A stretch of 64,000 nucleotides of DNA, taken from the NCBI GenBank assembly GCA_046329195.1, contig JAXLVB010000001.1, positions 2,585,235 through 2,649,234 on the forward strand, given 5' to 3'. Position numbers and translations under genes: made by a program. The DNA is from Spirosomataceae bacterium (GTDB taxonomy: Bacteria > Bacteroidota > Bacteroidia > Cytophagales > Spirosomataceae). The notes under the pieces are model-generated. The model had not been told where the DNA came from and searched no databases. It was given only the letters and a program-made list of their open reading frames with translations. Position 1 is the stretch's first letter, and each line of letters starts with the position of its first letter. Shown here in pieces: positions 13,504 to 24,954 of the stretch.

Positions 13504-14388
13504 CTACGCTTTCCGCTTGGTGTTTTCTCGGATGGATCGCTCGATTTCGTCCCACATTTCGTTAGGGACTTCTTCTAAGAAACTAAATTGACCTGCACCT
13601 TTGAGCCATTCGCCTCCATCAATGGTGATTTCTTGCCCGGTGATGTAGGCCGAGTAATCTGACATCAGGTAGGCGGCCAAATTGGCCAATTCTTGATGCT
13701 CGCCCACACGCCCCAGTGGGATGCGTTTCTCCATGTTGAACAAATGCTGCATAGGGGCTGGAAACAGACGGTCCCAAGCGCCCTTAGTAGGGAATGGTCC
13801 TGGAGCAATGGCGTTGAAACGGATGCTATGCCTGCCCCATTCTACAGCTAATGAGCGAGTTAGGTTAAACACTCCCGCTTTAGCAACAGCCGAGGGAACG
13901 GTATAGCCTGACCCCACGTAGGCATAGCTAGTGATGATACTGAGGACGGTTCCGGCTTGTTTTTGCTCAATCCAATGCTTGCCAACAGCCAAGGTGAAAT
14001 TAACAGTGCCTTGCAACACAATGCCAATGATACTCTCAAACGCCTTGTGCGAAAGCCGCTCCGTTGGGCTAATAAAATTCCCCGCAGCATTGTTAACCAG
14101 GCCATGTATAGACCCAAAACGGCTCAGCGTAGCCTCCAGTACTTGCATGACCTCTTCGTATTTGCGAACATCGCAGGGTACGGCAAGTACCTGACCGCCC
14201 GTTTCGGTCATAAGCTCTTGGGCAGTTGCCTCGATGACGTCAATTTTACGACTACAAATGACAACATTGGCGCCCAGTTGTAAGAAATAACGAGCCATAG
14301 ACTTCCCTAAGCCTGTGCCTCCTCCGGTCACGATGATGGTTTTACCCGAAAGCGCCCCGTCTTGGAGCATTCCTTGTGTATAAAGCAT
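13504..14388 (-). CDS. SDR-type 2,4-dienoyl-CoA reductase-like protein (DECR family)
   Basis: GKTIIVTGGGTGLGK, and NNAAGNF plus S…Y…K spacing typical of peroxisomal/mitochondrial dienoyl-CoA reductases. Confidence 0.8.
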   Translation of the reverse strand: MLYTQGMLQDGALSGKTIIVTGGGTGLGKSMARYFLQLGANVVICSRKIDVIEATAQELMTETGGQVLAVPCDVRKYEEVMQVLEATLSRFGSIHGLVNNAAGNFISPTERLSHKAFESIIGIVLQGTVNFTLAVGKHWIEQKQAGTVLSIITSYAYVGSGYTVPSAVAKAGVFNLTRSLAVEWGRHSIRFNAIAPGPFPTKGAWDRLFPAPMQHLFNMEKRIPLGRVGEHQELANLAAYLMSDYSAYITGQEITIDGGEWLKGAGQFSFLEEVPNEMWDEIERSIRENTKRKA

Positions 14389-14438
14389 GTGGCGTAAATG
14401 ATTTTGTGGTTTGTTTGAACAAACAGCAGGGTGATTAT

Positions 14439-15254
14439 TTAGTTTTCAAAGGTGGCTGGCTGCTTGGTCATGGATGCCTGAAAAGCGGCCATTAAGTCAG
14501 AAGAATAGAAAAAGGCGGCGTTCCAGTTGGCGATAAATTGCAGACTTTCAGCTACCGAGTGATCACGAGCATAGAGTAGATTTTGCTTCGTCCCTCGAAT
14601 CGAAAGTGGCGATTTGCTGGCAATCGTGGCGGCGATTTTCATAACTTCGTCGAGCATGGTGGCTTTGTCTGGAAATACCCGATTGACCAAGCCGCAGCGT
14701 TCGGCTTCAGTAGCACCGAGGTTGCGCCCCGTGTAAGCCAATTCTCGTACCAAGCCTTCCGAAATCAGCTTGGGCAAGCGTTGGAGTGTTCCTAAGTCGG
14801 CTACCATACCCATGTCAATTTCTTTGATGCAGAAATATGCATCGGCAGTACAATAGCGCATGTCAGTGGCAGTAACGATGTCCACGGCTCCACCAATACA
14901 ACCACCATGAATAGCCGATAGAATGGGTTTAGTGCATTGTTCGGCTGCATTGACAGTATTTTGGAGGTCGAGCAAAAACTTTCTGAATTTCTCCCGTTTG
15001 CGCCCCTCGCAAGGGTCTTGGGTTTTTTGTCCGGTGGACATGAGCATGGATAAATCAATCCCTGCCGAAAACAACTTGTCACCGGCTGCACTCAAGACCA
15101 CTACTCGTACTTCGGGGTTTTCGTGGCAGTGGAGTAGTGCATCACGGAGGTCTTCCCACGCTTGTTCATTGAGGGCATTCGCTTTTTCAGGGCGATTCAG
15201 CTCCAAATGCGCTATATGGTTATGGATGCTTAGGTTAAAATGTTGAAAAGCCAT
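14439..15254 (-). CDS. Enoyl-CoA hydratase/isomerase family protein (Δ3,5-Δ2,4-dienoyl-CoA isomerase, ECH1-like)
   Basis: Crotonase-fold motifs: LNRPEKANAL, VVVLSAAGDKLFSAGIDL, GGCIGGAVD. Confidence 0.8.
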   Translation of the reverse strand: MAFQHFNLSIHNHIAHLELNRPEKANALNEQAWEDLRDALLHCHENPEVRVVVLSAAGDKLFSAGIDLSMLMSTGQKTQDPCEGRKREKFRKFLLDLQNTVNAAEQCTKPILSAIHGGCIGGAVDIVTATDMRYCTADAYFCIKEIDMGMVADLGTLQRLPKLISEGLVRELAYTGRNLGATEAERCGLVNRVFPDKATMLDEVMKIAATIASKSPLSIRGTKQNLLYARDHSVAESLQFIANWNAAFFYSSDLMAAFQASMTKQPATFEN

Positions 15255-15324
15255 GGGTATGTTATTTTCAAATTATCTTTTGTTTGGTGTCCTCCAATCT
15301 AGTTCAAGTGCCATCTCCTATCCC

Positions 15325-16296
15325 CTACGGTCGAACTAAAATCTTACCCGTGCGGCCTTCTTGTTGGGCATGAATCACCGCTTCTTTGATTTGAGCCAAT
15401 GAGTACGTAGCCTCAACAGGCAGTTTGATTTCGCCACTTGCCAGTAGTTGTACCACATTGGTAAGGACTTCTTTGCGGGCTTCGGGCGAGGCTGTTTTCA
15501 TCCACGTAGTCAGCCAAAAACCCTTTAGCATGATTTCTTTAAAAATCATTACGCCAGCGTTAACTGGAATGTCCTCAACACTTAATGAGCCATAAATCAG
15601 CATTTTACCGCCACTGCTCAAGCAAGGCAACACCTGTGCGGCTGTTTTGCCAGCCACTGCCTCCAAAATACATTTTACTCCAGCACCTCCTGTGATGTCC
15701 TTCACACGGCGAGTCACGCTTTCTTGCGAAGTATCAATGATTTCGTCGGCTCCTAAGGCTTTGAGCTCTTCAATCATATCAGGGCGCCGGACAGTACCGA
15801 TGGTTTTAATGCCTTTCATTTTGCAGACCTGAATCACCATTTTTCCAAAGGCCGAACCCACTGCCGTGAGCATTAGCCATTCGCCTGGTGCTACGCCAGA
15901 GTCGAGTACCATAGCATAAGCCGTAAATGGATTGACAAACAACTGGGCGGCCACGTCGTCGGGCATGGAGGGTGGAATCGGTATGGCTGTTTTGGCTTGG
16001 GTGATGGCGTATTCGCCCCAAGTACCAATGCTTGTAAAACTAACCCGCTGTCCGATAGGCATCGTCACACCTTCGCCACAGGCATCCACAAGACCCACGC
16101 CTTCAAACCCAGCACCCGACGGGAAAACGGGTCGAATCCCATACAGATTTTGTACAAACATCACGTCGGAAGGATTAATGGGGGAGGCGATTACCTTCAC
16201 TCGAATCTCGCCTGCGGCAGGTTCTGGGGTTGGTATTTCAATAACTTCCAAAATGTCTTCTGGCTTGCCAGCGTGGTCAAATCGTGCAGCTTTCAT
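15325..16296 (-). CDS. Medium-chain dehydrogenase/reductase (quinone oxidoreductase / trans-2-enoyl-CoA reductase-like)
   Basis: MDR N-terminus (GEIRVKVIASPINPSDV) and NAD(P)-binding motif AVGSAFG. Confidence 0.8.
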   Translation of the reverse strand: MKAARFDHAGKPEDILEVIEIPTPEPAAGEIRVKVIASPINPSDVMFVQNLYGIRPVFPSGAGFEGVGLVDACGEGVTMPIGQRVSFTSIGTWGEYAITQAKTAIPIPPSMPDDVAAQLFVNPFTAYAMVLDSGVAPGEWLMLTAVGSAFGKMVIQVCKMKGIKTIGTVRRPDMIEELKALGADEIIDTSQESVTRRVKDITGGAGVKCILEAVAGKTAAQVLPCLSSGGKMLIYGSLSVEDIPVNAGVMIFKEIMLKGFWLTTWMKTASPEARKEVLTNVVQLLASGEIKLPVEATYSLAQIKEAVIHAQQEGRTGKILVRP

Positions 16297-16391
16297 GTGT
16301 TAAATAGTAAATATGGAATGATTTAAAAATGGAGTTGATGTGATTTGATAATCAAGGGTTTAAAAGGATTCAGTTAATACTCATAGGCTTT

Positions 16392-16419
16392 GTACTTTTT
16401 GTCTTGATACAAAAAGTAC
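16392..16419. promoter_or_regulatory. Perfect 11-bp-arm palindrome GTACTTTTTGT-N7-ACAAAAAGTAC, about 100 bp upstream of the β-oxidation-auxiliary operon start. It is not followed by a U-tract on either strand.
   Basis: Seen in the sequence; its position relative to the start of the 15325..16296 gene. Confidence 0.3.
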
Positions 16420-16590
16420 CAAAAAAATCAAGAAAATCCAATGCTTCCCTCCACAGCCTCACGCACCCCCGCTGGATTTTCAGCCCCCGCTCTTTTTTGT
16501 TTTTGTAAGTATTTGATTTTCAGATAACAGCAAGTCTAATGAACAAGTTTTTGAATTGATTACCTTAAAAGACAAGGTGATGTATGGGCA

Positions 16591-16660
16591 TAAAAAAAGT
16601 ATGCTTGCATACAAATTTGTGTAAAAATAATACAAATTTTATTATGCAAGCATACCATTT
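16591..16660 (-). terminator. Large imperfect hairpin (GTATGCTTGCATACAAATTT…AAATTTTATTATGCAAGCATAC) followed on the minus strand by T7. Intrinsic terminator of the DinB-like gene.
   Basis: About 22-bp inverted arms with a 12-nt loop, then a U-tract immediately 3' of stop codon 16673. Confidence 0.6.
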
Positions 16661-16672
16661 TGAATTTGCTTC

Positions 16673-17236
16673 TTATTTTTTTAGTGCATTCCAAATTTGG
16701 CGCTCATGGTGCCGAAAATGCGCATCCAGAAAGTCTAACATTTGAATCAGATTCAGCTTACCCGCTACCGGATGGCGAAACAAATCCCGCTCGGCGGCGC
16801 CTTCGGGCAACTCGTCGAGGAGAGCTTTGAGTTGCTGCCGAGTCTCTGTCCATTTTTCGGCTGTATGCGCCAATGTATCTGCTTCGGGCACGGAGGCTGT
16901 GGCAGGTGCTGCCTTTCGTTTCAAAAACGATGTAGCCAACCACACCTTCATCAGCCACGTTTTGAAGGCCGCTGAAAACCCTGTTTTTCGAGCCGAAGCC
17001 AGACCTAACACCTTCTTCCGTAGGTAATTAAGTGTATTAGCTTCTGACAAAATCAAGTGGTGCATCACCTGAATCGCCGACCATTTGTTAGGTTCGGGGC
17101 AGGTATTTAACGCCTGTTCGGGGTAGTCGGCAAGGCTCTGTACTAACGTGTTTCGCCGTTTTTCGGTACTATCAAAGAGTTGTTGTAGCTTAGGATCCAT
17201 GGGTTGTGTAGTGTTTAACCGAACGAAGATAGACAA
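16673..17236 (-). CDS. DinB/YfiT-like (DinB_2) four-helix-bundle metalloenzyme family protein
   Basis: 187 aa with conserved H…H spacing (VMHHLILSEANTL … HFRHHERQ). Confidence 0.65.
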   Translation of the reverse strand: MSIFVRLNTTQPMDPKLQQLFDSTEKRRNTLVQSLADYPEQALNTCPEPNKWSAIQVMHHLILSEANTLNYLRKKVLGLASARKTGFSAAFKTWLMKVWLATSFLKRKAAPATASVPEADTLAHTAEKWTETRQQLKALLDELPEGAAERDLFRHPVAGKLNLIQMLDFLDAHFRHHERQIWNALKK

Positions 17237-17269
17237 TTAAATCATTCAAAATCAGGTACTGTTGTGCTG

Positions 17270-17812
17270 TTACTCTTGACTCACCGCTGCTAGGCGTTGT
17301 TGCATAGACTTGTGGTGATGACTGGTGTGGAAGGCCGTAAAGTAGAGCATTTCTCGCACACTCATTTTGCCCATCACAGGGTGTGGTATGATGTACGTAT
17401 CTAGCTCTTGTTCAGTCCATTGATTATTCATAATGTTTAATAGCTGGGCATTACTTTGCTGAAACTGCGCAACCACAACAGCCTTGTCGGGATTGGTATC
17501 AATGACAGGAATAAAATTACCCGTTGCTTTTAGCCCCTGCTCCAGCACAGCTTCGTATTTTTTTACTACTTCTGCGTACGCTCGAAGCGGCCAGTTGACC
17601 GTTCCCCATTTTTCAACTAAGTATTCTTTGGGTTTGGTCATCAAATAAGCCACCGGCTGCACCGATTGGATCAGGTGTTGGACGTTTTCGGCTGCCGACC
17701 AGACATCTTGGTCAGGGCGTGCAAAAAAATGCTCGGAGCTGGCTTCTTGTGCAGTAGCCACCACCTGTGATACTGCACTAGTCAGTAAATCAGTGAGTTG
17801 AGTTTTGTCCAT
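17270..17812 (-). CDS. DinB-family protein (start placed at internal Met MDKTQL)
   Basis: Helical bundle with H-rich C-terminus (FHTSHHHKS). The upstream 34 codons overlap the preceding promoter region. Confidence 0.65.
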   Translation of the reverse strand: MDKTQLTDLLTSAVSQVVATAQEASSEHFFARPDQDVWSAAENVQHLIQSVQPVAYLMTKPKEYLVEKWGTVNWPLRAYAEVVKKYEAVLEQGLKATGNFIPVIDTNPDKAVVVAQFQQSNAQLLNIMNNQWTEQELDTYIIPHPVMGKMSVREMLYFTAFHTSHHHKSMQQRLAAVSQE

Positions 17813-17850
17813 GAGGTAAGTTTTTAGTTTTAAGGCATTCAGTAGGTACG

Positions 17851-18750
17851 TTAAGCACGAACGGCAAGATGGTGTTGAAGGAACAGGTCGAGTTCGGATA
17901 GGGCTTTGGTCCATAAGGTCGCTTTGAACGACTTACGGAAAAACCCAAAATGGTCAATGGACTTAACGCCCAACGACTGAGGGTTCATTTCCTCAATGGA
18001 TACACCTTTTTCACTCTTGACGTGTTTCCAAAACACCTCAACCGCTTGCCGATTGGCAATTTTATCGTCGGTAGCCCATAGTACTTTGATAGGGAATTTG
18101 ATGGCATGATACCACCCTTTGGCAGGCCCATCGTTGTAAAATTTGGGGTCGAAAAAATAATCAGGCACACTGCACCACGCTCGCCATTGATTGGTGATAC
18201 GAGCAGGGAGGTCTTCCATCAACCCAAATTGTTTGACAGCCGTGTAGCCATACAGCCAATGGGTAAGAGGCCGAACAATCTCAAAAAAGAAATGGGTACG
18301 CAGCCGATACCCCAAGGGCATAAATCCCCAATACCCCGACGACGACGCCACCGCCAGTAAGCCAATAGCCTGATTGACAGTAGGCATCAGGGCGAATTTC
18401 TGCCCCCCTACGCTATGCCCCATCAGGATAATGGGGAGCGAGGGAAATTGTTGTTGAAGAAAAGCCATAACGCCAGTCATATCTTTTTGAGCCCAATCTA
18501 AGTATTCAAAATCGCAATGCTTCAAGCCCGAAGCCGGTTTTGAGGCGCCGATACCTCGGTAGTCAAACAGGCAAACGGCGTAGCCCTCCGTAGCCAAAAA
18601 TTGGGCAAAGGCACTGTAGTATTCTTTCGGAACGGCAGTGGCTCCGTTGAGTTGAACAAGGGCTTTGGGTTGGTCGGGTACCAACAAGAGGCCGCCCAAG
18701 GGGTAGCCGTCGGTGGCAGGAATAGTAATTGGATTCGTGTTGTAATTCAT
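17851..18750 (-). CDS. α/β-hydrolase fold protein (start placed at MNYNTNPITIPATDGYPLGG)
   Basis: GHSVGG nucleophile elbow and α/β-hydrolase topology. The long ORF's N-terminal extension is hydrophobic junk. Confidence 0.8.
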   Translation of the reverse strand: MNYNTNPITIPATDGYPLGGLLLVPDQPKALVQLNGATAVPKEYYSAFAQFLATEGYAVCLFDYRGIGASKPASGLKHCDFEYLDWAQKDMTGVMAFLQQQFPSLPIILMGHSVGGQKFALMPTVNQAIGLLAVASSSGYWGFMPLGYRLRTHFFFEIVRPLTHWLYGYTAVKQFGLMEDLPARITNQWRAWCSVPDYFFDPKFYNDGPAKGWYHAIKFPIKVLWATDDKIANRQAVEVFWKHVKSEKGVSIEEMNPQSLGVKSIDHFGFFRKSFKATLWTKALSELDLFLQHHLAVRA

Positions 18751-18752
18751 TT

Positions 18753-18772
18753 TACCAAACGTTCGTTTGGTA
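18753..18772. promoter_or_regulatory. Second copy of palindrome TACCAAACGAACGTTTGGTA, 2 bp upstream of the hydrolase ATG on the minus strand. Putative TetR operator.
   Basis: The identical 18-mer CCAAACGAACGTTTGGTA is at 6443–6460. Confidence 0.5.
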
Positions 18773-19319
18773 AAGAACGCTAAAAAATAAAATCCAATGC
18801 AAGTTTTTGGTAAAAAAATGATGCTTGCATACGATTTTGAAGGAGTATTACACTTACCCTCCTTGATTTTGTCATAGAAATCAACGGAAGAAAAGAAAGT
18901 AAGGTGCATACCTTATGCCACCGATTTACCTGATAGGGGCACGAAAGCACCAAAACCACCTAAATTTATGCCCATGTAACCACCCAAGGGTTTGATGGAG
19001 CAAACTTTGCCAACTAAAAAGCCCCTTAGCTAAGTTGGATATATGAAAATATTTGTGTATTCTTGGAAAGCTATTCGTAATATAGAAGGTAGGCAAAGCG
19101 AAAATAAATCGCACTAGATGAACGAGTAGCTATAGCGGAAATGAACGCAAGTTTTTAAAATTTAAACGCAAGGGTTGCGTTTATTTGGATGTTATTGGCA
19201 ACCGTAGGACGACCACGCAACAAGCCACAGAGTGACGAAACAGTGCAGGCGACTAAAAGCAATAACAAAACGACCTAAATAATATTCTATCTTTGTATAT
19301 GCAAAACCATAGGTAAATT

Positions 19320-20372
19320 ATGACAATAGAAGAACTTGCAGAGAGCATATATGAAGTTATTAAGGACTACAGAAATCACGACAATATTTTTATTTCTCAA
19401 CAATATATACTTGAATGGGCGGAGCAATTTGAAGATGATAGACTGCTTGTTTTGACAGAGCTGAATAAAATAATTAAAGAAACATACGTTTCAAGGGAGA
19501 AGGCAAAAGAATTTGTATTCGAGCATCTTCTTGAGTATTTGAAATTATACAAATACTCAAACATTTCAACATTTTTAATTGATACAGAATTTTTAGACAT
19601 CCAACAACCACATAAAAGTCAACCCTCAATTTTATACATATTGGAAGAAGTTTTAAATGAAAAATTTCAAGATTCGTATATAAGATACAAGAATTATCCC
19701 AAATTAAACTATGTTTATTTTGATGATATTCTTGCTTCGGGCAGCACTATTGGGAGAGATTCAATAAATTTCTTGAATAGGGTAGATTCATCAGGAAAAA
19801 GGTTTGATCAAAAGGTGCAAGACAATGAGATAAAATTTTCAATCAGCGTATTTTGTTTACACACTTGGGGATTTGAATTTCAGAAATTCAGAATTCAGAA
19901 ACAATTTAGCGACAAGGTGATGAAAAAAATAAATTGGTTTTGGAATTACGAAATTCAAAATCACGCAAGGTTCAACAACCAAAAACTTAATATTGCAAAA
20001 CCTGTAAAGGGAAATAATATAAAGATAAATGGTTATTTGGAAAATTTACCCGCAACTAAACATGAAGATTACGCATACAGGAAGGCAAGTACCCCAACAA
20101 CAGAACAGTTTTTCACATCTGCGGGCAACAGAATAAAATTTGAAAATATTTTGACTGAAAAAGGAATAGATATAATCAGTATGATACAAGGCGAAGTAAA
20201 ACCAAATATAAGACCATTGGGATTGATAAACCCACAATATAAAATATTTGGGTTAGGAACTCATTTTTTTACTTGGCGTAATATTCCCAACAATTCACCT
20301 TTGGTATATTGGTGGGAAGTACACGGGCATAATTGGAAACCATTATTTTCTGTCGCAAATAGAGGGAATTAA
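19320..20372 (+). CDS. Hypothetical protein with a type-I phosphoribosyltransferase-like PRPP-binding motif (NYVYFDDILASGSTIG), inside an AT-rich island. Candidate toxin/effector.
   Basis: The motif [VIL]x[VIF]DD[IL][IL][AS][ST]G[ST]T matches the PRTase P-loop, as in PyrR VILIDDVLATARM in this same window. The gene is strongly AT-rich with atypical codon usage, and a TAtcTTTG −7-like box lies 25 bp upstream. Confidence 0.5.
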   Translation: MTIEELAESIYEVIKDYRNHDNIFISQQYILEWAEQFEDDRLLVLTELNKIIKETYVSREKAKEFVFEHLLEYLKLYKYSNISTFLIDTEFLDIQQPHKSQPSILYILEEVLNEKFQDSYIRYKNYPKLNYVYFDDILASGSTIGRDSINFLNRVDSSGKRFDQKVQDNEIKFSISVFCLHTWGFEFQKFRIQKQFSDKVMKKINWFWNYEIQNHARFNNQKLNIAKPVKGNNIKINGYLENLPATKHEDYAYRKASTPTTEQFFTSAGNRIKFENILTEKGIDIISMIQGEVKPNIRPLGLINPQYKIFGLGTHFFTWRNIPNNSPLVYWWEVHGHNWKPLFSVANRGN

Positions 20373-20393
20373 AAAAAAGTTTAATTTAGCATC

Positions 20394-21011
20394 ATGAAGC
20401 CGAGCGTAAGGGAATACCAAATCAAAAATGTCATTACGTTTGCAAAGACAGACGGACATTTTGGAGCCTTGTCAAATATGGCACCGGGATTTAATTTGTT
20501 CATTAACGAAGTTAATATTCAAAGTTCCGAAATATTATATCAAGCATGTAGATTTCCATTGTTTCCTAATATACAAGAAGAAATAATTAGGACACAAAAT
20601 CCAATGAACGCTAAAAAAATTAGCCGACAATATATTCAATATAGTCGTCAAGATTGGGACACTGTAAAGTTTAAAATTATGAAGTGGTGTTTAGAAGTTA
20701 AGCTAATTCAAAATTTTGACAAATTCTCAAATATACTTCTTTCCACTGACGACAAAACAATAGTTGAGTATTCTAAAAAAGATGCTGTTTGGGGTGCAAT
20801 ATTAAAAGACGACAAGAGCACTCTTATTGGAAAAAACGCTTTGGGGCGACTTTTAATGGAATTAAGAGAAAAAGTCAAATCAGGCGATATAAATAAATCA
20901 ACAGTTATTCTTCCACCAAATATTCCTGCATTCTTATTGTTCGGAAATATGATTGAAGACGTAAGGAGTGACGAGTACTTCATACTTGACTTAGACGAAA
21001 TCTACGCATAA
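20394..21011 (+). CDS. NADAR (YbiA/DUF1768-like) domain protein
   Basis: GHFGALSNMAPGFNLFINEVNIQSSEILYQACRF matches the NADAR core (LSNF…F…S.EHyfQA.KF). It lies 21 bp downstream of the PRTase-like gene. Confidence 0.7.
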   Translation: MKPSVREYQIKNVITFAKTDGHFGALSNMAPGFNLFINEVNIQSSEILYQACRFPLFPNIQEEIIRTQNPMNAKKISRQYIQYSRQDWDTVKFKIMKWCLEVKLIQNFDKFSNILLSTDDKTIVEYSKKDAVWGAILKDDKSTLIGKNALGRLLMELREKVKSGDINKSTVILPPNIPAFLLFGNMIEDVRSDEYFILDLDEIYA

Positions 21012-21037
21012 GAACGGCAGTCCATAACAGGCGTAAC

Positions 21038-22771
21038 TGTTGCACAACTAGCGAAAAGTGTCATGGCAGACCTTCATAACTAATTTCTAACAGGGGGGAG
21101 CTTTGGTATGGCCAACCTGTGTTGAAAATTTAGAACCCTTCTTGTCGAAGTTATAGAAGCCGTTTTGCTCCATTTTTGCCCATACAAACAGACTTCTTCC
21201 CTAATCGACAGCGCTTGCGCTACGGGCTGAACCTTTTTACGCTCAAAGCGCAAATACTTCTGCAAGTTGTAGCTCAGCGCTGCCATCAGTACGTGCTTGT
21301 TGGCCTGTGACATCCCTCGGGTGTTTACCCGCCTCCTATTCATAAAATTAATCAAGGTGCCCAGCACTGGTTCTACCGTCCGTGAACGTATCTTGCTTAT
21401 CCGATTGGCATACGCTCGATGCTTGCTCAGTTTCTCGTGCATTCGGTCGTAGTAGGGCTTGTCGATGCTCTCTTCCAACTTCTTGTACTTGGTGACTCTC
21501 CCACAGCACACCTCTCGCAGGGAGCATGATTTACAGATGCTTTCGCTTCTCCGGTACTGACGCTTGGCGTAGCCTTTGCTATCGGTCTTGATGCCTTTAA
21601 ATGTTAGTATCGCTTGCCGCCCCCCTGCTGTATGCATTCGTATTGGTCGAGTTCGGAATTATAAATAAAGCCTTCTCGTTCTGGCTTGTACTGTCCAAAA
21701 TTGGGTATATACGCATCTATACCATGCTCTTCACAATATTTCAAGGCTTTCCCTGAGCTATATCCTGCATCTGCTGCTAGTTGGTCTATTGATATAGACA
21801 CACTACCAAGATTTTCAATCGTTTGGTCAAGTATTTCTGCCAGATTCTCGCTGTCTTTGCTGCCTGCTGTACCTGCACAAGCTCCCGTGATGACATGGTG
21901 GGCATCATCCACTGCAAGTTGTCCACTATAATTTAGTTGACGGGCTTTACCTGGTTTTACTGAAATTTTGGCCTCCGGGTCGGTAGGTGAATAATGCGTG
22001 TGGTTGGATAAAAACTTGGGACGTATTAAATGACCATTTTCATCCACTCTTGATGAATCCGTATGGCCGGGCATGTCTTTATATTCCTCCTTTTTCCAGT
22101 CATGGTGTTGTTCTACCAACTTTTTGCGGGTACTCGTAACTTTATACTCAGAACCTTCTTCAAGCTCATTTATATAAGCACTTGCATCTTCTATAACTTC
22201 CTTTTCTACCAAACTATCCATACTCGCATTGGCTTTGATAAAGGCACTATCTACACACTGTCGTTTGCCTCTCACCATTCCTTTGGCTACGCATTTCTGC
22301 AATATCTGCTGAAATAACGCTAAAAACACCTGCTCACCATAAAGTTGACGTGTACGGCTAATCGTACTATGCCATGGCAATACTTCATCAATATCATATT
22401 TTAAGAACAAGCGTATGGCAAGGCTATCAGAACAGAAGGCTATCAGCTTTCGGTCTGATCGGATCGCCGAAGCGATTGATGTTGTTGAGATAACCTACAA
22501 GTAGTATCTTAAAGAAGACGACAGGGTCGATTGACTCTTGACCTTCTCTTCCATAATATTGGCTCGTAGCTCCATAGAGATACTCCAAGTCAAGAACCGT
22601 GTTGAGCTTGCGATAGTAATTGTTAGTACTGACCAAGTCTTCCAGATTGACTTGATAAAATTCTTTCGGACTGTAGTTTTTTCTGCCTTGCATACTGCTA
22701 AAATACAAAATAGACCTCAGATTTTCAATCTTTTTAGTTACTTTTGATGTACTTGAAGTAGTTGTGCAACA
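21038..22771 (-). mobile_element. IS element (IS1182/IS5-like) of 1734 bp bounded by perfect 13-bp terminal inverted repeats TGTTGCACAACTA / TAGTTGTGCAACA. No obvious target-site duplication.
   Basis: The IRs at 21038–21050 and 22759–22771 are exact reverse complements of each other, and they enclose the transposase ORFs. Confidence 0.7.
21080..22708 (-). pseudogene. IS1182/IS5-family DDE transposase split into three frames (22427–22708, 21604–22410, 21080–21637)
   Basis: The N-terminal InsH-like segment reads YYGREGQESIDPVVFFKILLVGYL. The middle DDE segment follows, then a C-terminal segment (GTLINFMNRRRVNTRGMSQANKHVLMAALSYNLQKYLRF). The three pieces are separated by two frame changes. Confidence 0.75.
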
Positions 22772-22922
22772 AGCACATCGGTTTTGTACAAGTGGGGCTG
22801 ATGGAATAAATTCAACATTTGTAATTCTATTCAGCTTTTGTGCTAAATTTTAGCTGACTTATTTCAAAACCCCACCTGCACAAAGCTGTAAACCGTTACC
22901 TGTAATTTTAAACAACATACAC

Positions 22923-23144
22923 ATGAAAAATATATTCTTACTACTGACAATACTCTCACTTTTATTTTCTCTTTACTTCCTTTATGAAAGGGCTGATATA
23001 TTTGTTGAAATTTTTAGAGGAAGACCATTCAATCAAATTCCTTTAAATGAATTAATTAAACCAACACTACTAGTAGCTCTAGGATTCTTCTTTCTTTATA
23101 TCTTTCGTAAACGACCAACAAAAACTCAAAACAATGAAAAATAA
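22923..23144 (+). CDS. Small predicted membrane protein (2 TM)
   Basis: 73 aa, hydrophobic, AT-rich; a weak call. Confidence 0.3.
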   Translation: MKNIFLLLTILSLLFSLYFLYERADIFVEIFRGRPFNQIPLNELIKPTLLVALGFFFLYIFRKRPTKTQNNEK

Positions 23145-23721
23145 ACTGATACTTTCTGTATTGCTCGTACTCTCAACTTTGACATATGGTTATGGACAAA
23201 CAAGTGCAGAATACACATCTGGCATTTCACAATTCCTAAACTGGATTTCTGAGTTAGACAATGTTTTATTAAATATTACTGACAAAGAAAAACTTAAAAC
23301 CATAGACCGTGAGTTAGGGTATGCGAGCTATGACATAAACCGAATTGCTTGGCAAAAGGAATATTTAGCCCTAAGTATTACCAGTATGAAAAACGCTAAA
23401 GAGGAAGATAAAATTGACGAATTAAGGCCTATAGTTAATGACCTAATTAATGATGTAGATAAACTAATCTCAAGACTTTGGACTATTAAAGGAGAGTTGT
23501 CACAAACAGACCAGGCAGCAGTTGACAAGATTATTCAAGATATAACATCTGGTTACCGAAATAAAAAATTACTGTATTTAAAAGACATAAAGAAATTTCT
23601 ATATGGTGAGAATGTTCCTTTGGCTAAGGTAAAAGAGGAAGCAAAACAGGCCAATGAGGTAGCTGCCGTAGCAACGGACAAAATAAATGAAGCAAGAGAA
23701 AAAATTAAACTTAAACTCTAA
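23134..23721 (+). CDS. Secreted α-helical hypothetical protein (signal peptide MKNKLILSVLLVLSTLTYGYGQ)
   Basis: 195 aa and AT-rich, with a signal peptide followed by a coiled-coil-like K/E-rich sequence. Confidence 0.45.
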   Translation: MKNKLILSVLLVLSTLTYGYGQTSAEYTSGISQFLNWISELDNVLLNITDKEKLKTIDRELGYASYDINRIAWQKEYLALSITSMKNAKEEDKIDELRPIVNDLINDVDKLISRLWTIKGELSQTDQAAVDKIIQDITSGYRNKKLLYLKDIKKFLYGENVPLAKVKEEAKQANEVAAVATDKINEAREKIKLKL

Positions 23722-24027
23722 TGATAACAATAAAAACTACAGGTAACAGCACCTACCCAAAAGGCGGGGTTTCGTGTTCCAAAGACAGTTTTGTGGTAAA
23801 TCAAACATTAGTTTTTCAAATGAATTTTTGTGGTAGATGTCCCGCCCTTCGGATAGCTGCAAAACGTTGGTGGCAACTCCGCCGTAGTCAGTGTCCCCAC
23901 TACACTGCTACCAACTGCCCCCGTTGTGGATAGTATTGGACAGAACACAAAGATAGAAAGCCGTCTGGGCCACCCCGTCTGGGTGACCCTTTCTGGGCGA
24001 CCCCATCCAGGGTAAAAATAATCCACG

Positions 24028-24954
24028 TTATGAAGTCGCTTCGAGCCAGCCAAATTTTTGCTGAATAATAGCCACTTTTTGCTCATTCAGAAAGCGCAAA
24101 TAGGAGCTCGCCACGGGGGATAAACTCTTTCCTTTTAGCCAAATCAAGTGCCACGTGCTTACAATAGGCAACCCCTTTACTTGAATTACTTGCAGACTGC
24201 CATTGGCCAGTTCGTTTTTGATGCCAATCAGCGGCATTACCGAGTAGCCCAGCCCAGCAATGACGGCTTGCTTCACGGCTTCGTTAGAGGTAAGTTCCAT
24301 TTTTTTGCGAATGGGTAACTTCTGCTCGGCTATGAATCGCTCCATCACGTACCGTGTACCAGAGCCTGCTTCCCGATAAATCAACGGAAGGCGCTCTAGC
24401 AGAGAAGTTTCATAGGTTTTTTTTGCAAATTTAGTGGCGGTATTCCCCACTAATACTAGCTTGTTGGGCATGAGCGCAACCGACTCAATTTGCAGATGCT
24501 CAGGTAGCACCGAAACCAACGAAAAATCAACCTCATTGTGCTCGAGACTTTCGATGACTTTGGCCTTGTTGGTGACGTCCAAGGCCAACTCAATGCCCTC
24601 ATGTTGGCGTAAAAAATCGGCTAAAAAGTAGGGCATGACGTACTTACCAGTCGAGACTACCGAGATTTTGAGCCGCCCCGTTAGTTGGCCTTTGTGAGCC
24701 AACGTTTTGTAATTAATAGCGTGTACTTCATCCAAAATTCGCTCGGCTGCTTGCACAATTTCCTTTCCAAAATCAGTAACGTACAACTTACGCCCAACCA
24801 CTTCAGTAAGTGGGATTTCAAACTGTTCTTGTAAGTTTTTTAGCTGAATTGATACAGCGGGCTGCGTTAAATGTAGTTCTTCGGCAGCTTTCGTAATGCT
24901 TTGTGTTTGAGCTACTTTAACTAACACTTGCAATTGATGAAGTGTGTAATTCAT
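24028..24954 (-). CDS. LysR family transcriptional regulator
   Basis: N-terminal HTH LHQLQVLVKVAQTQSITKAAEELHLTQPAVSIQLKNLQEQF. It is divergent from the IDH gene. Confidence 0.9.
   Translation of the reverse strand: MNYTLHQLQVLVKVAQTQSITKAAEELHLTQPAVSIQLKNLQEQFEIPLTEVVGRKLYVTDFGKEIVQAAERILDEVHAINYKTLAHKGQLTGRLKISVVSTGKYVMPYFLADFLRQHEGIELALDVTNKAKVIESLEHNEVDFSLVSVLPEHLQIESVALMPNKLVLVGNTATKFAKKTYETSLLERLPLIYREAGSGTRYVMERFIAEQKLPIRKKMELTSNEAVKQAVIAGLGYSVMPLIGIKNELANGSLQVIQVKGLPIVSTWHLIWLKGKSLSPVASSYLRFLNEQKVAIIQQKFGWLEATS

Follow-up and report, generated by a model that had tools for sequence, protein, structure and literature searches.

What kind of system is encoded by two adjacent genes in the genome of a Spirosomataceae bacterium, the first for a protein with a phosphoribosyltransferase (PRTase) motif and the second for a NADAR-domain protein? 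The pair lies at 19320–20372 (gene 1) and 20394–21011 (gene 2) of a 64,000-nucleotide (nt) stretch of contig JAXLVB010000001.1, referred to below as the window, whose numbering is used throughout. An earlier reading of this DNA, the original prediction, described the two co-oriented open reading frames (ORFs) with their 21-bp spacer correctly and took them for a candidate toxin–antitoxin or defence module that was as yet undescribed. The combination of a PRTase with a NADAR protein has, however, already been published as the anti-phage system DS-32, and curated NCBIfam models exist for both proteins. Judged by its protein sequences, the window pair is very probably a Bacteroidota (Spirosomataceae) member of the DS-32 family. 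The features on which the argument turns are as follows.

19288..19295, + strand: putative Bacteroidetes-type −7 promoter box TATCTTTG, 24 nt 5′ of the ATG of the PRTase gene
19320..20372, + strand: DS-32A-like gene (gene 1) for a 350-amino-acid PRTase-CE protein with a helical N-terminal region (about residues 1–88), a type-I PRTase-like core (about residues 89–215) and a C-terminal signature region
19713..19754, + strand: loop for binding phosphoribosyl pyrophosphate (PRPP), VYFDDILASGSTIG, residues 132–145, from reading of the motif and from the family alignment
20211..20300, + strand: C-terminal signature RPLG...GLGTHFFTWRNIPNNSP, residues 298–327, with a PNNxP element, from the family alignment
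20373..20393, + strand: intergenic spacer of 21 nt, bounded by the TAA stop codon (20370-20372) and the ATG of gene 2 (20394), in which a terminator scan found none
20394..21011, + strand: DS-32B-like gene (gene 2) for a 205-amino-acid NADAR (YbiA-type) protein with a C-terminal extension (about residues 164–190) and an acidic tail

DS-32 is an anti-phage system of E. coli ECOR, reported with DefensePredictor by DeWeirdt et al. (bioRxiv 10.1101/2025.01.08.631726; Science 2026, PMC13092281), and consists of a PRTase (DS-32A) and a NADAR protein (DS-32B). Reference sequences were taken from the supplementary tables of that paper (Table S8: NZ_QOXQ01000027.1 48629-50261, WP_000097610.1 and WP_032260665.1). 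By BLASTP, the gene 1 product is 24% identical to E. coli DS-32A from end to end (E 1e-18), and the gene 2 product is 45% identical to DS-32B (E 1e-56). Against the NCBIfam equivalog NF053875 (DS32_1_antiphage, phosphoribosyltransferase-like anti-phage protein), gene 1 scores 284.1 bits (cutoff 250), with residues 6–344 aligned to positions 1–321 of the 322 in the model (E 1.4e-84). Gene 2 scores 269.4 bits (cutoff 240) against the corresponding model NF053876 (DS32_2_antiphage, NADAR family anti-phage protein) and covers it fully, from position 1 to 181 (E 8.8e-81). The E. coli references reach 312.7 and 257.5 bits on the same two models, which places the window proteins inside the range of the family. 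Passing of both models, together with direct homology to the reference proteins, argues that the pair belongs to a system already described, as a divergent member.

The two systems share the gene order, A before B, and nearly the same protein lengths (350 and 205 amino acids here, 343 and 203 in E. coli), as well as the C-terminal PNNxP signature of the A subunit and the C-terminal extension of the NADAR protein. They differ in that the E. coli genes overlap by 11 bp, whereas a spacer is present here; in the strongly diverged A subunit, in which the PRPP loop reads DDVSFSGEK in E. coli and DDILASGST in the window; and in the host, which here is a member of the Bacteroidota with a Bacteroidetes-type promoter box. 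A blastn search of the window operon against complete E. coli genomes gave no match because the DNA is too diverged, and the link to DS-32 was therefore made at the protein level. In E. coli, the DS-32 clone (labelled ‘NADR’) gave −log(efficiency of plating) values of 3.70 for Bas26, 1.60 for RB69, 0.88 for SECphi18, 0.62 for T5 and 0 for Bas67 (PMC13092281 Table S7); these values come from the first part of nine of that table, and the quoted phage range is possibly incomplete. The E. coli orthologue is thus anti-phage by experiment, and the pair occurs elsewhere in defence-type neighbourhoods (see below); by analogy, the defence role put forward in the original prediction would hold for the window pair as well.

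Gene 1 had been seen as a PRPP-loop motif within an otherwise unrecognisable protein. The motif withstands scrutiny; the description of the remainder does not, since Pfam PF24390 (PRTase-CE) covers the whole product (133.9 bits), and NF053875 matches it as well. The loop is not a fortuitous match: YVYFDDILASGST, at residues 131–143, has the hydrophobic strand, the two acidic residues and the xxx-[ST]-G-x-[ST] ending of the PRPP-loop pattern. Its residues Y133, D135, D136 and G141 are invariant in an alignment of 32 non-redundant PRTase-CE sequences from three phyla, including E. coli DS-32A, the Klebsiella, Vibrio, Methylobacterium and Bacillus copies, and a set of upstream paralogues that are described below. 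The loop is fully canonical in the Bacteroidota clade, and in the Proteobacteria and Bacillus copies it ends in K or R (SGEK, TGDR, SGNR). In the predicted structure, it follows a strand (residues 130–138) and leads into a helix (142–152), in the manner of type-I PRTases. The core tests as a Rossmann-like type-I PRTase fold that resembles the PRTases of purines and uracil, at about 3 Å across some 130 residues, and the N-terminal region is all-helical. Pfam Pribosyltran gave no match to gene 1 at E <= 1, and a comparison of the family profile with PDB sequences returned noise, with no PRTase found; membership of the PRTases is at the level of fold or superfamily only. Towards the C-terminus, P299, G301, G311, G313, R320 and N321 are invariant across the PRTase-CE family, which gives the pattern (R/K)PxG...GxG...RN(x)PNNxP. 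The PNNxP element is kept in all NADAR-adjacent copies except that of B. cereus (ANNCP). Taken together, sequence and model point to a diverged type-I PRTase that is predicted to use PRPP.

The second gene is a NADAR gene, as had been stated: its product matches Pfam PF08719 (NADAR) with 99.5 bits (E 3.2e-28). Its score of 85 bits likewise exceeds the cutoff (73.7) of TIGR02464, ‘riboflavin biosynthesis intermediates N-glycosidase’, and some sources label its homologues ‘ribA/ribD-fused uncharacterized protein’. Among PDB sequences, it matches YbiA (2b3w, 2.7e-15) and a NADAR protein (8bau, 7.2e-10). The AlphaFold2 model (predicted local distance difference test score 90.5) retrieves only these two structures in Foldseek, 8bau being the ADP-ribose-bound NADAR of Phytophthora; the match to 2b3w has a value of 7e-9, a TM-score of 0.75 and 32% identity. 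E. coli YbiA is thereby the best match in both structure and sequence, and active-site residues are common to the two. In an alignment of 28 NADAR sequences from three phyla, E. coli YbiA included, S27, N28, E46, Q50, E125, D130, W133 and G134 are among the invariant positions, and E125 (IVEYS) aligns to the last-strand Glu of YbiA (LVEHT). The residue at this position is Glu in the YbiA family, Asp in DarT1-linked NADARs and His in phage gp30.3 (PMC11125620), and by this criterion gene 2 belongs to the YbiA class. As far as its residues can tell, the protein looks like a catalytically intact NADAR. It differs from plain YbiA in being always accompanied by a PRTase-CE protein and in a conserved, confidently modelled extension (residues ~164–190) with invariant F180 and L182, whose FLL(F/G)G stretch recurs in E. 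coli DS-32B. At the C-terminal end, about 15 residues (191–205) are modelled with low confidence as an acidic helix, likewise conserved, which may serve as a degron or docking peptide.

Conserved PRTase–NADAR synteny, on which the original prediction depended, is found wherever it can be assessed. A single-protein search of genome contigs gave at least three loci; the wider census draws on a metagenome scan, a plasmid tblastn search and contigs that encode homologues. The NADAR gene lies directly 3′ of the PRTase gene in 22 of the 22 loci with enough downstream sequence (24 genome and metagenome loci in total), and likewise in the genomes of Elizabethkingia, Chitinophaga and Fluviicola (3/3). 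Distant homologues, with 25–29% identity, in Klebsiella, Vibrio, Methylobacterium and Bacillus cereus are each followed by a gene for a ‘NADAR family protein’ (4/4). In the reverse direction, three NADAR homologues on long contigs served as the starting point, and all three have PRTase-CE upstream. Between the two genes, homologous loci have anything from an 11-bp overlap to a 31-bp spacer. The pairing is strictly obligate across three phyla, and the E-values against the two DS-32 models, together with intact pairs in dozens of genomes, argue that it is not due to chance. No natural PRTase–NADAR fusion was found among the homologues listed, which are all of about 350 or about 205 amino acids. 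Nor is there a third conserved gene around the pair; the insertion sequence (IS), the small ORFs and the upstream DNA of the window are all absent elsewhere. Occurrence is sporadic, on plasmids and islands, and these observations support a conserved, horizontally mobile two-gene module.

The neighbours of the pair in other genomes include Shedu SduA_C, SUKH immunity proteins, type I and type IIG restriction–modification (R-M) systems, SNIPE, AbiEii and PycTM, and further a Gabija-like OLD-TOPRIM ATPase with a UvrD helicase, SymE, Fic, integrases and resolvases. Across more than 30 loci, the pair is never next to a rib, pur or pyr gene, and rib genes are also missing from its surroundings in the window. 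A LexA-operon or riboflavin context for gene 2 homologues was never encountered in the homologous loci surveyed, so the riboflavin-metabolism setting that the original prediction had named as evidence against itself does not arise.

Some of these loci have features of their own. In Empedobacter tilapiae (L041), the DS-32 pair shares a typical defence island with the OLD-TOPRIM ATPase and UvrD helicase, an MmeI/Eco57I-type R-M system, SNIPE and a resolvase, and in Flavobacterium yafengii (L042) with AbiEii, PycTM and a resolvase. In Elizabethkingia anophelis (L029-L031, 4716-7967), a gene for a 1083-amino-acid P-loop NTPase ends 33 bp 5′ of PRTase-CE, with a SymE toxin gene near; this NTPase has weak matches to AAA/STAND and to PADLOC MkoA, and may be a separate defence gene or a DS-32 accessory. 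Chryseobacterium-type loci (L002 4638-5684, L003 4799-5842, L007 3800-4843 and L008 3695-4738) represent a three-gene variant in which a second PRTase-CE paralogue lies directly 5′ of the DS-32A-like gene. This upstream paralogue is 33–35% identical to gene 1, scores 298 bits on NF053875, and has the PRPP loop YYADDVLASGGT and SNTCP in place of PNNxP.

Several other systems combine similar parts, and according to a 2025 preprint the defence PRTases of retron III, ShosTA, PsyrTA and Ophion (OpnC) form one clade. The closest comparison is with the effectors of type III-A retrons. PADLOC models for PRTase_III-A match E. coli DS-32A and the B. cereus homologue over nearly their full length (7.5e-11 and 1.3e-09) and the upstream paralogue more weakly (1.4e-03). 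In the PADLOC check that had been proposed for the window (here with version 2.0, 2023), gene 2 matches only a candidate NADAR model, PDC-M42C, and gene 1 has no match at E <= 1. In the HHblits analysis of the DS-32 authors, the best remote match of DS-32A is ‘Retron_III~PRTase’, with probability 100 (PMC13092281 supplement). These matches suggest that PRTase-CE is the effector module of type III-A retrons, with NADAR replacing the reverse transcriptase (RT) and its multicopy single-stranded DNA (msDNA). Type III-A retrons, for example Retron-Eco11 (III-A3), have a homologous effector and likewise a PNNxP element, which forms part of the retron-PRTase motif ‘Gx14PNNxP’ (PMC12746101); PRPP-dependent toxicity and a similar working are, by analogy, probably common to both. 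Unlike these retrons, the window locus has no RT, no non-coding RNA (ncRNA) or msDNA and no C-terminal winged-helix domain, and the partner is a NADAR hydrolase. No RT-like ORF (YxDD motif, ORF >250 amino acids) exists in the 64-kb window; this, with the lack of an Rfam match and of a conserved upstream RNA, indicates that the locus is not a retron. A hidden retron or ncRNA 5′ of the PRTase gene was considered and is ruled out on the same grounds.

DarT1–NADAR (DarTG1) and YarT–YbiA resemble the pair as two-gene operons that couple the formation of N-ribosyl bonds by one enzyme to a hydrolase of NADAR/YbiA fold. DarTG1 likewise acts against phages, and YarT-associated YbiA has the same Glu as E125 of the window NADAR, in contrast to the Asp of DarT1-linked NADARs. 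Gene 1, however, has a PRTase fold, would use PRPP and not NAD+, and has no DarT match in Pfam, PADLOC or NCBIfam; the expected product, by analogy, would be a phosphoribosyl adduct and not an ADP-ribosyl adduct. The DS-32 authors themselves found no similarity of DS-32A to DarT and have already raised a DarTG-like ‘TA partner swapping’ (PMC13092281). The wording of the preprint, which speaks of ‘DarG’ with NADAR, fits the DarTG1 nomenclature of PMC11825919 and PMC11125620. ShosTA and PsyrTA are two-gene defence or toxin–antitoxin modules with a PRPP-binding toxin of PRTase fold that perturbs nucleotide metabolism. What sets ShosTA apart from the window pair is the N-terminal pyrophosphatase domain of ShosT and the nature of the antitoxin ShosA, a DNA-binding protein similar to DprA (PMC11961720); the window pair has no PADLOC match to ShosT or ShosA, no pyrophosphatase domain and no DprA-like partner. 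It thus agrees with DS-32 in sequence and gene order and departs from DarT–NADAR, retron III-A and ShosTA systems, which argues for its assignment to DS-32. In their working, DS-32, DarTG1, retrons and ShosTA would be alike in a general sense, as an effector that forms N-ribosyl bonds with a partner that neutralises it.

NADARs of the DS-32B type also occur without a PRTase in two jumbo phages.

L036 4980-5615 (record 156887-157522): NADAR of the uncultured phage LR745208.1, with 231.8 bits on the DS32_2 model (cutoff 240)
L037 4992-5630: NADAR XAI97231.1 of Dolichospermum phage Dfl-JY45, with 190.2 bits on the DS32_2 model (cutoff 240)

Both align with this model end to end, as against 57–64 bits on a generic YbiA model, and both retain the Glu typical of YbiA (in IVEFS) as well as the C-terminal extension of DS-32B. 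Neither has a PRTase-CE gene in its vicinity. The window PRTase and E. coli DS-32A gave no tblastn match in 50,697 phage records, which argues that the DS-32 module is not phage-borne, and a scan of IMG/VR with the PRTase alignment found no relatives. Orphan antitoxins of phages that neutralise DarTG1 have been described (PMC11825919). The two phage NADARs resemble these, and by analogy they are candidate counter-defence genes against DS-32. A further observation concerns the PRTase gene at L001 6001-7047 in Tenacibaculum sp. TC6 (NZ_JBOCUK010000003.1), which at 82% identity is the homologue closest to gene 1 in a genome. It is interrupted in frame by a stop codon where gene 1 encodes Q163, and the NADAR gene downstream is intact; either the effector gene is decaying or the sequence contains an error. 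Together with the orphan phage NADARs, a broken PRTase beside an intact NADAR leans towards an antidote role for the latter.

How might the pair work? In the mechanism that we favour, the DS-32A-like PRTase-CE protein would be the effector, as a homologue of the type III-A retron effector; it would bind PRPP and transfer ribose-5-phosphate to a nitrogen acceptor. Either the PRPP and nucleotide pools would be drained or a toxic N-phosphoribosyl adduct would arise on a base or nucleic acid, and phage replication would stop. The YbiA-type NADAR would serve as an antidote N-glycosidase that hydrolyses the ribosyl–nitrogen bond in what the effector makes, so that uninfected cells are spared, until infection tips the balance towards the effector. 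This toxin/antidote mechanism, drawn from analogy, comes close to an even chance of being right. Antitoxin function against DarT1 and YarT has been demonstrated for NADARs and YbiA-family proteins, which cleave N-ribosyl bonds by hydrolysis (PMC11125620); the PRTase toxin ShosT binds PRPP and perturbs purine metabolism (PMC11961720); and activation of the Retron-Eco11 effector by phage helicases cuts PRPP by ~50%, with abortive infection (PMC12746101). For DS-32 itself, we infer the toxicity of DS-32A, the action of DS-32B on its product, and the identities of acceptor and trigger.

Several points weigh against this mechanism. The PRTase of Retron-Eco11 alone is non-toxic in E. coli (PMC12746101), and PRTase-CE proteins may likewise need activation and not continuous neutralisation. 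A literature search found no toxicity, rescue or enzymology data for any DS-32 protein, nor any later paper on mechanism. Since the window protein has no PADLOC match of its own, its link to the retron effectors is transitive, by way of other family members. The low identity of the A subunits and the difference between SGST and SGEK in the PRPP loop suggest that the clades might differ in activity, and phage protection, known for the E. coli system alone, is extended to the Bacteroidota clade by analogy. The observations on phage NADARs (n = 2) and on the pseudogene (n = 1) are few, and other explanations of them are possible.

A more specific form of the mechanism was foreshadowed in the write/erase activities of the original prediction. 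DS-32A would attach ribose-5-phosphate from PRPP to the nucleobases of DNA or RNA, DS-32B would erase it, the jumbo-phage NADARs would act in counter-defence, and the retron III-A effectors would work alike. PRPP-dependent ‘phosphoribosylation’ of nucleic acid would be analogous to ADP-ribosylation by DarT. As a whole, this proposal is tentative and, on balance, doubtful. The write/erase hypothesis is nevertheless a reasonable one, and essentially it is the question already posed by the DS-32 authors.

Among the alternatives to toxin and antidote, the one that survives best, although unlikely, is a joint action of both enzymes: the PRTase would phosphoribosylate a base and the NADAR protein would hydrolyse the product back in a futile cycle, so that the pair would be a catalytic PRPP hydrolase that starves the phage, with no antitoxin involved. 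Strict conservation of both active sites fits this scheme, as does the fact that the two genes are always together and tightly coupled. The known substrates of YbiA are 5-phosphoribosylamino compounds, with which the TIGR02464 match of gene 2 is consistent. Depletion of PRPP has moreover been measured on activation of the related retron PRTase (PMC12746101). Constitutive self-starvation would, however, need extra regulation, yet no third conserved gene accompanies the pair; and an orphan co-effector would be of no use to a phage, yet two jumbo phages carry DS-32B-like NADARs without a PRTase. In every characterised pairing, namely DarT1–NADAR and YarT–YbiA, the NADAR protein is the antidote (PMC11125620).

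It is quite improbable that the NADAR protein is an antitoxin mainly by contact, inhibiting the PRTase through protein–protein binding, possibly via its C-terminal extension, with hydrolase activity secondary or aimed elsewhere. The extension with its invariant F180 and L182, which plain YbiA lacks, and the conserved acidic tail would suit such binding, and DarG is reported to bind DarT directly besides reversing its product (PMC11125620). Invariance of the catalytic residues shared with YbiA in all 28 NADARs would nevertheless be hard to explain if catalysis were dispensable. No better placed is the proposal that the pair is a selfish addiction module, which persists by post-segregational killing or by stabilising its island, with no real anti-phage benefit, and is maybe inactive in its present host. 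Foreign GC content, the adjacent IS, the sporadic distribution on plasmids and islands, and the decay of the PRTase gene now and then (L001) are in keeping with it. Against these stand the phage protection given by the E. coli orthologue, the usual neighbours, which are bona fide defence genes, and the state of the window pair itself, in which both ORFs are intact and all conserved residues and the promoter box are present. Addiction would in any case be compatible with the toxin/antidote reading. Housekeeping metabolism, with a nucleotide-salvage PRTase and a YbiA-type damage-control N-glycosidase for riboflavin intermediates, is far-fetched: the TIGR02464 match and the ‘ribA/ribD-fused’ labels speak for it, but no rib, pur or pyr gene adjoins the pair in any of more than 30 loci, gene 1 has no Pfam Pribosyltran match, the GC is foreign and the phyletic pattern patchy, the DS-32 model outscores the YbiA model for the NADAR protein (269 against 85 bits), and the defence phenotype of the orthologue has been demonstrated experimentally.

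The −7 box of Bacteroidetes promoters has the consensus TAnnTTTG. In the 569-nt intergenic region upstream of gene 1 this box occurs once, where shuffled sequences lead one to expect 0.17 occurrences; of 23 distinct DS-32 loci in Bacteroidota, 13 have it at −70 to −15, compared with 3% of random windows. From this sequence pattern, we infer that the box acts as a promoter, and its recurrence across Bacteroidota loci fits an autonomous operon. A scan for sigma-70 promoters and terminators gave no excess over shuffles, and such a scan is uninformative for Bacteroidota. Conservation of the upstream DNA stops at 43 nt around the promoter in the DS-32 loci compared. The two genes share one reading frame, in which they are separated by a stop codon and six codons, and the terminator-free spacer is consistent with their co-transcription. 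On this sequence evidence, the pair most likely arrived by horizontal transfer, as a complete operon of two genes that brought its promoter along.

The surroundings of the pair comprise the following features.

18751..23800, no strand: low-GC island, of ~3.3 kb without the IS, between an alpha/beta-hydrolase gene (17851-18750, − strand) and a LysR gene (24028-24954, − strand)
21020..22789, − strand: decayed IS, IS1182/IS5-like, bounded by imperfect terminal inverted repeats of 31 nt (21020-21050 and 22759-22789)
22923-23144, + strand: small ORF for a hydrophobic protein of 73 amino acids, in the low-GC DNA beyond the IS
23134-23721, + strand: small ORF for a protein of 195 amino acids with a signal-peptide-like N-terminus, overlapping the ORF at 22923-23144

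Both the AT-rich island and the adjoining degenerate IS had been noticed before, and both are borne out. The GC fraction is 0.320 and 0.329 in the bins at 19–21 kb and about 0.44–0.49 in the flanking bins, or about 0.46 for the surrounding DNA as a whole; at 200-nt resolution, low-GC DNA spans ~18.75–21.0 kb and, after the IS, 22.8–23.8 kb. The IS begins 9 bp past the NADAR stop codon, has a host-like GC of ~0.45, and its transposase (Pfam DDE_Tnp_1_6, DDE_Tnp_1 and DUF772) is split among three ORFs. It is absent from all other DS-32 loci. The window pair itself and the identical NADAR–IS junction are present in independent metagenome assemblies (e.g. L039). From composition and layout, the IS appears to have inserted into an older low-GC island of ~3.3 kb. 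It may in doing so have separated the operon from its native terminator.

The flank at 13504-18750 contains genes for a short-chain dehydrogenase/reductase, an enoyl-CoA hydratase (ECH), a zinc alcohol dehydrogenase (ADH), two DinB-like proteins and the alpha/beta hydrolase. Synteny with a distant relative (L034) is partial and confined to the ADH/ECH side. The same holds for the nearest relatives with long contigs, which offer no clean empty site from which to date the insertion, so the island boundaries are drawn from GC. Neither a tRNA nor an Rfam match was found across the whole 64-kb window. The two small ORFs have no significant Pfam family, with a single sub-threshold match to YpmT (17.6 bits, cutoff 25). 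They were considered as components of the system and are ruled out because they are absent from every other DS-32 locus, which makes them unrelated island cargo. Near the right edge of the low-GC island, there are three tandem 14-nt repeats (CCGTCTGGGCCACC-like) at 23961-24002 and a pair of 31-nt direct repeats at 23771-23838; the repeats overlap the 3′ end of the LysR gene.

As a claim of discovery, the locus is small, since the PRTase–NADAR pair is published, experimentally validated and covered by curated hidden Markov models. Its main value is as a pointer to the chemistry of PRTase-CE proteins: which product the effector makes, and what the NADAR protein removes. The Bacteroidota clade, with its canonical PRPP loop, may suit biochemistry better than the E. 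coli protein, and the orphan DS-32B-like NADARs of phages could be natural inhibitors and probes. DS-32A and the retron III-A effectors would represent one module with swapped partners, NADAR in the one case and RT–msDNA in the other. If the product is indeed a phosphoribosylated nucleobase or nucleic acid, this would add a novel type of base modification to the conflict between phage and host.

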